DNA of 63,613 nucleotides, counting the filler, from an uncultured bacterium (GTDB lineage Bacteria > CAYJOG01): assembly GCA_964371695.1 (NCBI GenBank). It is 28 parts of 28 records of this genome, joined end to end, with 100 filler letters (N's around TTAATTAATTAA, not from the genome) between each part and the next. Parts side by side here need not be neighbours in the genome. Positions count along the whole stretch, not along the records: positions 57,132 to 59,227 come from CAYJOG010000565.1; positions 59,328 to 61,421 come from CAYJOG010000566.1; 26 more parts are not named here. One strand, given 5' to 3'. The position numbers and the translations under genes were made by a program. The notes beneath the pieces are model-generated. The model saw nothing but the letters and a program-made list of their open reading frames with translations, searched no databases and was not told the origin of the DNA. Positions 9,326 to 59,515 of this stretch are shown here, piece by piece. The first letter of the stretch is position 1. Every line of letters starts with the position of its first letter.

Positions 9326-9441
9326 TCCCCCTCACCCGCCTCGGGTTTCGCTTCGCTCAACCTTCGGCTGCCCTCTCCCTTAGGGAGAGGGCAAGAAAAA
9401 AAAGCGCCTATTGCGTCCACGTCTACTCCGAAAATGCTCTA
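9326..9441 (-). mobile_element. partial TAGAGCA-ended MITE containing a CCCTCTCCC hairpin
   Basis: reverse complement starts TAGAGCATTTTCGGAGTAGACGTGGAC and aligns with 41224-41340. Confidence 0.7.
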
Positions 9442-20682: not shown

Positions 20683-20902
20683 GCCCTGCTGGTGCTTAAG
20701 AGTTAAAACAGGTGGTGGGGCCAGTAGCCACAGGCGTCTCACTCAAAGCTGCTAACTTTTGACAAAAAACCAACATCGTTCCCTCTCCCCTCTGGGGAGA
20801 GGNNNNNNNNNNNNNNNNNNNNNNNNNNNNNNNNNNNNNNNNNNNNTTAATTAATTAANNNNNNNNNNNNNNNNNNNNNNNNNNNNNNNNNNNNNNNNNN
20901 NN

Positions 20903-23205: not shown

Positions 23206-23275
23206 GCCCTCTCCCTGAGGGAGAGGGCAAGGACTGGCCCCGCCCTTTGTCTACGTCAAATATGAATTTGCGCTA
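23206..23275 (+). mobile_element. partial TAGAGCA-type MITE, right end
   Basis: near-identical to 30152-30221. Confidence 0.7.
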
Positions 23276-30107: not shown

Positions 30108-30221
30108 CCCCCTCACCCGCCCGTGACCTCACATGCGTTCGGTCACGGTCTGCCCTCTCCCTCAGGGAGAGGGCAAGGACTGGCCCCGCCCTTTGTCTAC
30201 GTCAAATATGAATTTGCTCTA
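30108..30221 (+). mobile_element. partial TAGAGCA-type MITE, right half; its terminal TAG is the DUF1848 stop
   Basis: overlaps 41383-41426 in sequence; ends GTCTACGTCAAATATGAATTTGCTCTA. Confidence 0.72.
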
Positions 30222-41242: not shown

Positions 41243-41426
41243 ATGTAGACAGCATACGGGCTTTTTCTTTGCCCTCTCCCAGAGGGAGAGGGCAGCCGAA
41301 GGTTGAGCGAAGCGAAACCGGAGGCGGGTGAGGGAGAAAGAGAGCTTTTGAAAAAAGCCTGATTCTTTCTGCCCAGCCTGTTCCCCCTCACCCGCCCGTG
41401 ACCTCACTTGCGTTCGGTCACGGTCT
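41224..41426 (+). mobile_element. TAGAGCA-ended MITE, left part, with paired CCCTCTCCC/CCCCTCACCC hairpin repeats
   Basis: starts TAGAGCATTTTCGAAGTAGATGTAGAC; supplies the last codons and stop of the YyaL gene. Confidence 0.72.
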
Positions 41427-54637: not shown

Positions 54638-54928
54638 AGCGTTTTCTGACTTGGGAGAGCACAAATCCGGGCCGGATGCCGGACAGGCTACTCCCTCTCC
54701 CCTTGAGGGAGAGGGTTGGGGAGAGGGGCTTATCGAAAAACAAAAAAACCGAACAAGGTTTTTGTTTTCTTGCTTGAACCCCGGCTGTTTCGCGCTTCGC
54801 GCTCAGGCGGGTGAGGACACCCGCCCTANNNNNNNNNNNNNNNNNNNNNNNNNNNNNNNNNNNNNNNNNNNNTTAATTAATTAANNNNNNNNNNNNNNNN
54901 NNNNNNNNNNNNNNNNNNNNNNNNNNNN

Positions 54929-56773: not shown

Positions 56774-56838
56774 GTAGGGCCGGTGGGATTCGCCCTTCTT
56801 GCTGGCGGCGTCGTGCCGCCAGCAGCCGGGCAGCCTCG
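56774..56838 (+). repeat. GCTGGCGGC..GCCGCCAGC hairpin repeat family; also 56977-57031 and, in opposite orientation, 58151-58209 and 58948-59000
   Basis: four copies about 55-65 nt long on two contigs. Confidence 0.8.
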
Positions 56839-57131
56839 CCAGCTCTCGGCGCATCCTGCGCCTCGGTGTGCACCGCACACCCGCTGGCTCGGTTCTCATC
56901 CCCACCGGCCAGATCGGCTGAGTGTAAGAGGCATTTTGATAAGCTGCGTTTTCAGCCTTCGATTCCCCCCCGGGTGGTAGGGCCGGTGGGATTCGCCCTT
57001 CTTGCTGGCGGCGTCGTGCCGCCAGCAGCCGNNNNNNNNNNNNNNNNNNNNNNNNNNNNNNNNNNNNNNNNNNNNTTAATTAATTAANNNNNNNNNNNNN
57101 NNNNNNNNNNNNNNNNNNNNNNNNNNNNNNN

Positions 57132-57508
57132 TTGTGAACGCCCGTCACCCGCTCATGCGCCGCACGGCGGCCTGGGTGACGGGGGCGCGGAACCCTTTTC
57201 ACACGGCGGGGGAGTTCCGGGGCGAAGGCAACATCCACGGCGGCGGGGCGTGGACAATGGGGCTGGCGGCGCGGGTGTTGTCTGGCTTGGACGCCGCCCA
57301 TGGCCGACGCGCCCTGCTGGGGGCCGTCATGGATGGCGGTGATGCCTGCGAGGCGGTGGACCCCCACACCGGCGGTTGCCACAGCGGCGCGGCCATGGCC
57401 AGCGCGGCGGCTTTCATCACACAGGCGTTTTATGCTGACCGGGGCGGGTGCGCCACCCGCCCGGCAGTGGTTCAAGGAGGAACAACATGCCCATCAAGAA
57501 AATCATGA
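57132..57508 (+). CDS. C-terminal fragment of a probable (alpha/alpha)6 glycoside hydrolase, GH125-like
   Basis: NPF..G...G.H...W.MGL..., CEAVDP..G resembles the GH125 C-terminus. Confidence 0.4.
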
Positions 57509-57942
57509 CCAAAGAGGTGATCAGTTTTGAGCCTCAAATGAGCCTGGAAGACGTGTTCGCCATCATGTATCGCAACCGCATCAGCGGCGGGCCGGTGGTG
57601 GATGAAAACGGCGACATGGTGGGTGTGATTTCTGACGCAGACCTGATTCGCGCCATGGCCCCCAACCTGTTCAAGGTCATGACACTGCAAAGCCACGCTG
57701 AAGACAAAGAACTGATGCGCGAAATCCAGAAACGCCTCAAACGCACGCTGGTGAAAGACGTGATGTCGCCCCATGTGGAAAAAGTGGTGGAGGCGGAGTC
57801 CATCGTGAAGGTGGCGGCCATCATGGCCAGCAAAAACCTCAAGCACATGCCCGTGATGAAAGAGGGCACCGCCCAGGTGGCGGGCTGGGTGTCGCGGCGC
57901 GACCTGCTGCGCTCCATGTTCAGCCGCCTGGGTTTGAGCTGA
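57487..57942 (+). CDS. CBS domain pair protein
   Basis: AAGGAGG RBS; ISGGPVVDENGDMVGVISDADL, VKDVMS. Confidence 0.9.
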   Translation: MPIKKIMTKEVISFEPQMSLEDVFAIMYRNRISGGPVVDENGDMVGVISDADLIRAMAPNLFKVMTLQSHAEDKELMREIQKRLKRTLVKDVMSPHVEKVVEAESIVKVAAIMASKNLKHMPVMKEGTAQVAGWVSRRDLLRSMFSRLGLS

Positions 57943-57991
57943 CAGGCCCCGCCGGGCCAAATGCGGGAAAACCGGCTAAAGTAATGCTGTC

Positions 57992-58065
57992 GGGCGGTTA
58001 GCTCAGTTGGTTAGAGCGCATGGTTTACACCCATGAGGTCGGGGGTTCGAAGCCCACACCGCCCA
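57992..58065 (+). tRNA. tRNA-Val(TAC), CCA not encoded
   Basis: GGGCGGT/ACCGCCC acceptor stem, GCTC/GAGC D-stem, CATGG-TTTACAC-CCATG anticodon arm, GGTTCGA T-loop. Confidence 0.95.
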
Positions 58066-58387
58066 CAAGGTCAATATCGTTAGGGCGGGGGGGGTTAGAA
58101 CCGAGGCCGCCAGTCCCAAGGACCGCCCCACTGGTTGTGGCGAGAGCGGCCGAGGCTGCCCGGCTGCTGGCGGCACGATGCCGCCAGCAAGAAGGGCGAA
58201 GCCCTCACCCCCCACCCAGGGTGGCGGTGAGGGTTTCGGAGGGAAAAGCCGACCCCCGGTGGGGGCCGAGGCGCGGGATGCGCCGAGAGGTTTTTCCCCT
58301 GCCCGGCTGCCTGAAATGAAAAATGGTTTGCCCACTCCCTCTCCCCTTTATGGGGAGAGGGTTGGGGTGAGGGGTCAAACAAAAAGC

Positions 58388-58756
58388 CTATAAACCCTCT
58401 TCTCTTTCTTTCACAACGGCCAGCAACGCCTCCACCACCCCAGGCAGGTTTTGAAGCACCTCCAGGTTGGTGTATCGAAAAACAGCGACGCCCTTGGACT
58501 GCAAAAAAGCCGTCCGTGCCTTGTCCCGCAAAAGCCCTTCGGCCTCCAGGTGTTGGCCCCCATCCACTTCCACCGCAAGGCGCAACGCCGGGCAATAAAA
58601 ATCCAAGACGTATGGTCCAAGCGTGAATTGCCGCCGGAATTTGTGTTGATCCAGTTTCCGGTTTCTCAGGGCGCTCCACAACTTGCCCTCGGCGTCTGTG
58701 CTGGCTTGGCGCAGAGTCCTTGAAAAAGCAATTTTCTCCGCTTCTCTTTCAGGCAC
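58388..58756 (-). CDS. DUF559 (Vsr-like, very-short-patch-repair-type) endonuclease
   Basis: LRQASTDAEGKLWSALR...KFRRQ...YVLDFYC..LAVEVDGGQH....RD..RTAFL..G..VFRYTN. Confidence 0.92.
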   Translation of the reverse strand: MPEREAEKIAFSRTLRQASTDAEGKLWSALRNRKLDQHKFRRQFTLGPYVLDFYCPALRLAVEVDGGQHLEAEGLLRDKARTAFLQSKGVAVFRYTNLEVLQNLPGVVEALLAVVKEREEGL

Positions 58757-59515
58757 ACGAAAAGTTTAGTGCGGGCGCGGTGTTTGCGACAAAGGTGGGG
58801 CTGCGCCCGCTTGTTGCCTACCCCTCACCCCAACCCTCTCCCCAGTAGGGGAGAGGAGGCTGATTCAACCCATCTTCACCGCCCCTTCACCTCCACTGGG
58901 GAGTGGGCGTCGCAAAGCGCGTCGCGGCATGATGCACGGGTTGTCCACGAGGCTGCCCGGGCGGCACAATGCCGCCAGCGAGAAGGGCGAAGCCCTCACC
59001 GCTCACCGAAGGTGGACGATTTCGAGTGATAAACAATGGTGCATCACGCCTCTCCCCTTTATGGGGAGAGGGCGGCGCGTAGCGCCGGGTGAGGGGTTAA
59101 ACATGAGCAAAAAATCAAAAAAGTTGTTTTTTGCTTTTGAATAAACCCCGGCAGTTTCGCGCTTCGCGCTCAGGCAGGCGAGACGCCCGCCCTACTCCGT
59201 CGTGCCGCTGGGCGCGCCCGGCAGCATNNNNNNNNNNNNNNNNNNNNNNNNNNNNNNNNNNNNNNNNNNNNTTAATTAATTAANNNNNNNNNNNNNNNNN
59301 NNNNNNNNNNNNNNNNNNNNNNNNNNNTCTTACTGGATTCCCGCTTTCGCGAGAATGACGGCGGAGTTCTCCCTGTTTTTGCTGATATTGCCGCTTGACC
59401 CCTCCCAAGCCAAAAAAATGTGGGTCATGACAGGCCCCTTTATGGCGAGAGGGTGCCGCAGCGCGCCGGGTGAGGGGTTGAAGCAAAAACCCGGCACTGT
59501 CGAAAGGTGTCCGCC

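Follow-up and report, generated by a model that had tools for sequence, protein, structure and literature searches.

This study concerns a short cassette of one gene and its flanking repeats in the genome of an uncultured bacterium (CAYJOG01, assembly GCA_964371695.1). The stretch analyzed, called the window below, is 63,613 nucleotides (nt) long and consists of 28 joined contigs of about 2.1 to 2.2 kb each, with N linkers between them. The cassette (58337-58856, 520 nt) is part of contig 57132-59227, where a CBS-domain gene and a tRNA-Val(TAC) gene precede it. Past the tRNA, this contig is dense in repeats and holds a single open reading frame (ORF), which encodes a nuclease of the DUF559 family. 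We found that inverted copies of a published repeat, the BoxC/PIT/TMECO intrastrand triplex motif (TM), stand on either side of the gene. This bracket is general across phyla and specific to DUF559 genes.

The ORF matched Pfam PF04480 (DUF559) at E 2.1e-31 and 108.5 bits (cut-off 20.6), with residues 9-115 aligned to profile positions 4-108 of 109, and this upheld the 122-aa DUF559 gene proposed in a first-pass annotation made from the sequence. Among other profiles, Pfam MTES_1575 matched weakly, the NCBIfam model PRK09767 (YcjD-type) scored 78.8 bits, under its equivalog cut-off of 218, and the structural-genomics entry PDB 3hrl matched at E 3.6e-22. All 13 columns that are invariant across 30 homologues are kept in the window protein, including D52, E63, and H69, and it also has D65, which is nearly invariant. 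By comparison with the family, these four residues are presumably catalytic. At E <= 1e-3 the window protein has 274 relatives among 327 candidates, many of them on very short contigs. Many homologues carry the Joint Genome Institute (JGI) name "very-short-patch-repair endonuclease," and several end in C-terminal tails such as PSPNPLPEGEG, which are translated repeat. Proteins P0002 and P0004 are 94-95% identical to the window protein; in species genomes and JGI metagenome contigs no relative exceeded 58% identity, and no empty counterpart of the window locus turned up there. A tblastn search of the window found no second DUF559 copy in it. A profile built from stand-alone DUF559 proteins matched PDB 3hrl (E 2.5e-33) and PDB 3r3p (E 4.2e-5). 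The latter is titled "Mobile intron protein" and corresponds to the nuclease part of I-Bth0305I, an intron homing endonuclease. The part of a 2012 survey used here puts Vsr, DUF559, and that intron endonuclease in one clade (PMC3424549). Matches of the stand-alone profile to enterotoxin B chain entries (E 0.04-0.7) were judged to be chance.

Both flanks of the window gene have the sequences reported in the first-pass annotation, and they are inverted: the arms at 58344-58375 and 58820-58851 are 91% complementary over 32 nt and lie 444 nt apart. In gene orientation, the repeat at 58337-58374 is the downstream end of the cassette and folds at -16.2 kcal/mol (z -4.2), and the repeat at 58821-58856 is the upstream end, with a hairpin fold at z -2.9; it agrees exactly with the consensus in its a'-b part but lacks the outer stem pair. 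The gene ends with a stop codon 13 nt before the downstream repeat, and the window copy is intergenic. A terminator scan flagged neither flank, and no T run follows either one. A third copy on the same contig (59048-59096) folds at -20.8 kcal/mol (z -5.4), and its nested form also flanks DUF559 genes at loci L104, L106, and L110. In agreement with the annotation, the right flank recurs without a mismatch over 43 nt at the beginning of contig 24 (52725-52767). The 23-nt a'-b part has four copies in the window at <= 3 mismatches, versus 0.00 expected (100 shuffles), and the exact hairpin has five copies, versus 0 expected, which rules out a chance origin. The annotation's figure of about 15 copies was too high: a relaxed pattern does give 15, but clean CTCTCCC..GGGAGAG hairpins number 10; of these, five possess a third arm and one is truncated where its contig stops. 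The five third-armed copies lie on 2 of the 28 contigs. Between the upstream TM and the start codon is a leader whose counterpart in homologous loci is a spacer of 16-145 nt. The TAAACT hexamer within it is where the annotation placed it; its suggested promoter role was not borne out, since a promoter scan gave 0 sigma-70-like sites in 58100-59227. The features are collected in Table 1.

Table 1. Features of the cassette, its contig, and related repeats elsewhere in the window
Feature	Position	Strand	Description
DUF559 (Vsr-like PD-(D/E)XK) nuclease gene	58388-58756	minus	122 aa, GTG start
TM, left flank	58337-58374	+	CCCTCTCCCC-TTTAT-GGGGAGAGGG-TT-GGGGTGAGGGG = arm a, loop, arm a', TT, third arm b
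Leader, upstream TM to start codon	58757-58820	-	64 nt; hairpin GCGGGCGC..GCGCCCGC and TAAACT hexamer
TM, right flank, inverted	58821-58856	-	minus strand CCTCTCCCC TACT GGGGAGAGGG TT GGGGTGAGGGG
Third TM copy on cassette contig	59048-59096	+	nested GC hairpin CGGCGCGTAGCGCCG between arms a' and b
TM copy at very start of contig 24	52725-52768	-	left neighbor lost at contig end
Solo TM variant	54693-54728	+	third arm GGGGAGAGGGG; no gene adjoining
CBS-domain gene	57448-57942		same contig as cassette
tRNA-Val(TAC)	57992-58066		same contig as cassette
Second, unrelated repeat family D1	58169-58224	+	GGCGGCACGATGCCGCC hairpin, then GAAGGGCGAAGCCCTCACC
D1, other side of cassette	58960-59015	+	89% identity to 58169-58224

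The identity of the repeat follows from the TMECO consensus, CCCTCNCCC N3-6 GGGNGAGGG N3 GGGNGAGGG (Holder 2015, Nucleic Acids Research, PMC4666352; cited here from part of the paper). With the loop relaxed to N3-7 and the spacer to N2-4, three window copies matched exactly, versus 0 expected, and in the fourth (58821-58856) both purine arms match and one base is off in the outer stem. Thus, the repeat is not a new class but a known one. The window copies and TMECO share a pyrimidine arm, loop, purine arm, and second purine arm in near-identical sequence, and both occur as many dispersed copies with some inverted pairs. According to that paper, triplex motifs are equated with BoxC and with earlier "PIT" elements; they occur in > 260 genomes and are abundant in E. 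coli, Pseudomonas, Neisseria, and cyanobacteria, and E. coli K-12 has 23 TMECO copies, with inverted pairs at five loci. The motifs were linked to genome instability, with no origin or partner protein known. The single-stranded motif forms a stable triplex in vitro, whereas for the window copies only a hairpin fold was computed. The parts of the paper used here report no mobility gene for the motif and tie no gene to it, in contrast to the bracketed nuclease gene found here, and the words "endonuclease" and "DUF" are absent from its text. As far as a full-text search shows, with subscription journals and supplements outside it, the link between DUF559 and this repeat is unpublished.

The link can be seen in E. 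coli K-12, where the DUF559 gene ycjD (1351407-1351760) lies about 170 nt from TMECO no. 9 (1351204-1351239) and at its 3' end merges with a decayed TM-type hairpin. A duplicated fragment of the ycjD 3' end follows the gene (L081, E. coli K-12 1349500-1352500). The sapF-ycjD-fabI form is present in 3343/5426 E. coli genomes, and the rest have the eefRABCD operon there, according to part of a report (PMC12817139). Between K-12 (L081) and E. coli O55:H7 (L181), homology is lost about 16 nt away from TMECO no. 9; the L181 region, which has the eef form, contains no TM.

We then compared 80 loci from species genomes, in many phyla, whose proteins are 45-58% identical to the window protein. By eye, the usual order in gene orientation is a hairpin and G-tail tens of nucleotides before the start codon, and a C-tail and hairpin at or after the stop codon. 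A strict motif detector found both flanks at 28 loci, the upstream flank only at 9, the downstream flank only at 22, and none at 21. TM density beside the gene was 2.41/kb (127 in 52,640 nt), versus 0.13/kb elsewhere at the same loci (69 in 528,836 nt). The misses of the strict detector were often lineage variants or nested forms. Therefore, we used a motif-free test instead, which is a local alignment of the 200 nt upstream with the reverse complement of the downstream flank. It was applied to 113 loci (the 80, 30 loci with the best PF04480 matches in a class-level genome sample, and 3 others, after removal of five duplicates), of which 105 had full flanks. We found that 83/105 exceeded the 95th percentile of 261 shifted controls and 79/105 exceeded the 99th; many of the Pseudomonas loci are orthologous, so the loci are not all independent events. 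A replication on 80 metagenome loci, 10 of which had flanks too short, gave 56/70 above the 95th percentile of 125 controls and 53/70 above the 99th. These results agree with the annotation's expectation that inverted repeat flanks would be enriched at DUF559 genes.

The two flanks also change together. At L101, L104, L106, L110, L111, L114, L119, and L120, lineage variants of the repeat are altered on both sides of the gene: L111 and L114 have CCTCCCCC..GGGGGAGG with GGGTGGGGG; L104, L106, and L110 have ACCTCTCC..GGAGAGGT, a nested hairpin, and then GGTGAGGG; and L119 and L120 have CCTTCTCCC..GGGAGAAGG with GATGAGGGG. Patescibacteria flanks have AT-richer forms of the repeat. When each upstream flank was matched with its own and with foreign downstream flanks, its own came out ahead (median rank 0.067). 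Genome G004 has three cassettes, each with a different TM type. Thus, the repeat type goes along with the cassette and is not set by the host alone.

Some copies of the cassette lie inside protein-coding genes. At 17 loci (13/80 genome and 4/80 metagenome loci: L021, L027, L040, L051, L054, L055, L060, L064, L067, L068, L072, L076, L077, L189, L197, L244, and L245), the whole cassette forms one open frame with a host gene. Host Pfam domains were present on both sides in 12 of 13 scanned, and on the upstream side only in L189. Restriction-modification or methylase genes are the hosts in 11/17 cases (MmeI-like, 2; DUF1156-type methylase, 2; HsdM, 3; HsdR, 1; HsdS, 2; N6_N4 methylase, 1), and the other six hosts are methionyl-tRNA synthetase (MetRS), valyl-tRNA synthetase (ValRS), and Mur-ligase-like proteins (4). 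The tree described below suggests about nine independent events among the first 13 of these loci. Pfam scans of 13 fusions found no Hint or intein family, and we rejected an intein or intron explanation for them. Solo repeats are read through in frame as well, as the MmeI-like proteins of L054 and L060 illustrate. In the loop that follows AAWY(V/L)KAA(K/Q)Y, L054 has a full cassette, and L060 has a 13-aa solo-repeat peptide at the same position; the DUF559 cassette of L060 sits in another loop of the MmeI-like enzyme.

Comparison of relatives revealed that the gene and its two flanks are present or absent as one block, and the empty sites that the annotation had proposed to look for were found at two places. 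In G003, the cassette is in the variable linker of MetRS before the C-terminal tRNA-binding domain, encoded by metG. Two relatives whose metG was aligned, G233 and G242, have a plain linker and no cassette, and among the DUF559-part matches listed for 40 order-level relatives (one of them, G230, unpublished), none is in metG. The second place is in Pseudomonas. In G001, about 840 nt separate a TonB-dependent receptor gene from a convergent gene, and they consist of the DUF559 gene with a minus-strand TM and a plus-strand TM on each side. In G289, G268, and G284, 10 nt lie between the matches to the same two genes, with about 10-20 unaligned junction bases, and these junctions are free of TMs. 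At this position, G245 carries another palindrome, and its DUF559 gene is on a separate contig. Genome G187 has four cassette copies with few differences, and the sequence that they share extends as nested inverted repeats up to about 175 nt. These palindromes seem to have been built by insertion into one another. The G187 copies (L141-L144) have a 33-nt insert in the TM hairpin loop.

Across genomes, gene and repeat occur together. In five cassette genomes, we counted 37-278 TMs and 1-3 DUF559 matches; a reversed control pattern gave 0 in all genomes listed. We took a class sample of 201 genomes, of which 54 had the canonical TM pattern and 42 had a strong DUF559 match (best E <= 1e-25). With genomes counted as independent, both were present in 29, the gene only in 13, the repeat only in 25, and neither in 134 (odds ratio 12, Fisher p 7e-11). 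Leaving out the unpublished G044 and G145 gave 28/12/25/134. In 121 genomes of the genus Pseudomonas, the corresponding numbers were 22/0/16/83 (p 3e-14, counted in the same way). Six Pseudomonas genomes without the gene have 41-134 TMs, and five with 50-134 TMs had no PF04480 match even at E <= 0.01. Two of the five gene-less, repeat-rich Pseudomonas genomes have a clean empty site where a relative has the cassette. The correlation that the annotation had proposed to examine was present for co-occurrence and did not reach significance for copy number: among TM-bearing genomes, median copy numbers with and without the gene were 19.5 and 10, which is not a significant difference (p 0.14). Repeat-rich genomes without the gene, which the annotation had named as evidence against its proposal, do exist, and the five Pseudomonas genomes bear out that objection in part.

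Taken together, these comparisons establish a three-part cassette that is general, has co-varying ends, is either wholly present or wholly absent at a site, occurs in frame in host proteins, and accompanies its repeat at the genome level; how it moves is inferred. We favor a selfish gene that depends on the repeat because all gene-bearing Pseudomonas genomes have TMs, repeat-rich genomes without the gene exist, and the enzyme is related to a homing nuclease. In our reading, 58337-58856 is one copy of a widespread mobile cassette made up of a TM, a leader of about 60 nt, a DUF559 gene, and an inverted TM, with the TM flanks as its terminal inverted repeats. There is about an even chance, in our judgment, that this is a selfish nuclease gene living in and depending on TM palindromes and spread in a homing-like manner by nuclease-triggered repair. 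The Vsr-like nuclease may nick or cut at TM structures, either the hairpin or triplex or the center of a TM palindrome, and host recombination and repair would find homology in the TM copies and in the longer composite repeats that surround them. The gene would thereby be copied into other TM-bearing sites by homing-like gene conversion, and new insertions may arise from rare illegitimate repair at hairpins. Gene-less single or paired TMs would be targets or decayed relics of the gene, and need not be its products.

Several observations weigh against a mobile, homing-like cassette. The co-occurrence p-values ignore relatedness, and many of the genomes are incomplete bins. No bracket above control level was found at 22/105 genome loci and 14/70 metagenome loci. 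A search of five Pseudomonas genomes with 134-297 TMs for tails-inward TM pairs, with spacers of up to 30 nt, came back empty, and the gene is single-copy in four of the five. Therefore, homing, if real, is rare there. The Pseudomonas empty sites have no TM pair, and thus a simple model of homing into an existing pair fails at those sites; neither their clean state nor the single-copy state of the gene in this genus is explained by simple homing. No target-site duplication was found at 28 bracketed loci, in the multi-copy genomes, or at the Pseudomonas junctions, and no precise target could be defined; the intergenic DNA at the empty sites is too diverged for base-exact borders. Finally, the gene in Pseudomonas groups in a single clade and occupies a common locus, a pattern that resembles vertical descent. 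As further observations on TM arrangement in this genus, pairs in Pseudomonas are mostly tails-outward, versus tails-inward in E. coli K-12, and G273 has same-strand tandem TM arrays with a 111-nt period (C1:770449-771037 and 1002643-1002897).

The clade comes from a quick tree of 81 sequences, built on few columns and with many open forks, in which 30 rows, nearly all Pseudomonadaceae, group together. Other supported clades mix phyla, for example Actinomycetota, Chloroflexota, and Thiothrix. For the window protein no sister has support, and the highest identity is 58%. The contig of L073, binned as Devosia, has a cassette inside the Pseudomonas clade, and that of L059, binned as Bathyarchaeia, has a typical bacterial-type cassette; these may be binning errors or transfers.

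Repetitive extragenic palindromic (REP) sequences and REPINs offer the model for a different explanation. In those systems, short dispersed hairpins far outnumber one gene for a REP-associated tyrosine transposase (RAYT), an HUH Y1 transposase, which is flanked by inverted copies. By analogy, the DUF559 nuclease would disperse and maintain the whole TM population of its genome, and the gene would usually be single-copy, vertically inherited, and flanked by its cognate repeat. The likeness is real in that the gene is flanked by inverted copies of a repeat dispersed in the same genome, TMs greatly outnumber gene matches in the five cassette genomes, and the Pseudomonas gene is single-copy at one locus and in one clade. 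Moreover, 7/7 genomes with >= 198 TMs carry the gene, TMs are nearly uniform inside one genome, and the upstream TM of the G005 cassette is one base off the commonest solo type there. However, the cassette TMs of G003 are unlike its 41 solo TMs, and repeats abound where the gene is lacking: in the five Pseudomonas genomes above and in six class-sample genomes without strong DUF559, with 13-44 TMs (G067, G157, G125, G064, G136, and G117), although one of the six, G157, does carry DUF559 fragments. Nor does copy number depend significantly on the gene. Unlike RAYTs as we know them, the cassettes reach several copies in some genomes, extend across phyla, and can lie in frame within genes; the TM has a third arm; and the enzyme, by its Pfam match, is a Vsr-like PD-(D/E)XK nuclease and not an HUH/Y1 transposase. 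To our knowledge, a 120-aa PD-(D/E)XK nuclease has no strand-joining activity, which also counts against this explanation. We consider it unlikely.

The first-pass annotation had proposed the nuclease as the cognate enzyme of the repeat. The link between gene and repeat, their co-variation and co-occurrence, and their movement as a block all support this. Given five repeat-rich genomes without the gene, the idea that the nuclease spreads gene-less repeats, as a RAYT would, is unsupported as stated. The data fit better with a gene depending on the repeats than with a nuclease dispersing them. A bolder proposal is that DUF559 and BoxC/PIT/TM together form an undescribed class of autonomous nuclease-only element, with inverted repeats able to form triplexes or hairpins as its ends, which would spread through repair triggered by the nuclease, seed gene-less repeats, cross phyla, and colonize genes in frame. 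We advance it only tentatively, and with somewhat more doubt than belief.

It is also conceivable that the gene is a resident one, and that the TMs are its expression or insulation signals or that it is a passive passenger between repeats moved by other means. The distance from the upstream TM to the start codon is indeed fairly constant, the downstream TM comes at the stop codon or just past it, and repeats can abound without the gene. However, the flanks are translated in frame in 17 host-protein loci and therefore have no terminator role there. The terminator scan result at the window flanks is of the same kind, and by eye, in one genome, there was no other convergent gene-sized pair among the 83 TM places listed for G005. 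An earlier study, as cited in the Discussion of Holder et al., found the motifs to be without promoter or terminator activity (PMC4666352, in part). Thus, we regard a resident gene as improbable.

Least probable of all, and in our opinion very unlikely, is a housekeeping Vsr-like mismatch-repair nuclease tied to a cytosine methyltransferase, with incidental repeats: the JGI name of many homologues, the 11/17 in-frame hosts in restriction-modification or methylase genes, and the DUF559-containing VsrA of Caulobacter, which causes an SOS response once the solitary cytosine methyltransferase ScmA is deleted (PMC12907096, in part), favor it, but it leaves unexplained the bracket, the co-variation, the presence or absence as a block, and the insertions in MetRS, ValRS, and Mur-ligase-like genes, the distribution is patchy (22/121 Pseudomonas genomes), and no methyltransferase gene is on the window contig, which is only 2.1 kb long. 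VsrA shares the fold family and a DUF559 domain with the window protein and damages DNA in vivo; it differs in that it acts in methyltransferase-linked repair, and the part of that paper used here describes no repeat context (PMC12907096).

The cassette resembles three other kinds of element in part. Like homing endonuclease genes such as that of I-Bth0305I, it has a nuclease whose family profile matches 3r3p and it has occupied and empty alleles, at metG and at the Pseudomonas TonB-receptor locus; unlike them, it lacks an intron or intein (13 fusions scanned) and has inverted repeats of its own. With miniature inverted-repeat transposable elements and insertion sequences, it shares terminal inverted repeats, which measure about 35 nt and reach about 175 nt in G187, as well as gene-less pairs and presence or absence in relatives. 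It differs from these in having no transposase of a known class and no target-site duplication that we found, and in that single half-elements are common. Rickettsia palindromic elements are repeats of palindromic form that have entered protein genes in frame. In-frame read-through in host proteins is also seen for cassettes and solo TMs, but the cassettes carry a protein domain of their own and occur in many phyla, and the window copy is intergenic.

The window has other repeats as well. Simple hairpins of the form GCC-CTCTCCC-TNA-GGGAGAG-GGC, without the third arm, are at 9373-9389, 23209-23225, 30155-30171, and 41274-41290. They share flanking sequence, such as GGCAAGGACTGGCCCCGCCC after two of them, and are therefore part of another repeat unit of greater length. 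Several of the 28 contigs, which are nearly equal in length, begin or end within hairpin repeats (20782-20802, 23206, and 52722), and these repeats probably broke the assembly at those ends. The D1 family has the unit GGCGGCAC-GAT-GCCGCC (hairpin), then AGCAAGAAGGGCGAA.., in at least four copies on two contigs. The two on the cassette contig are direct repeats about 110 nt beyond each cassette end; further copies are at 56780-56820 and 56983-57023.

If the bolder proposal of an autonomous nuclease-only element is right, an enzyme would be supplied for a repeat family that has been an orphan for 30 years. If the link is functional, it would add a nuclease-only type to the known kinds of selfish element and would account for the source of domain insertions in MetRS, ValRS, and many restriction-modification enzymes, as well as for breaks in short-read assemblies at such loci, as in the window. 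The DUF559 family is very large and its structure has been solved, but its function is not settled, and the link to the repeat makes both questions, that of the enzyme and that of the repeat, directly testable.

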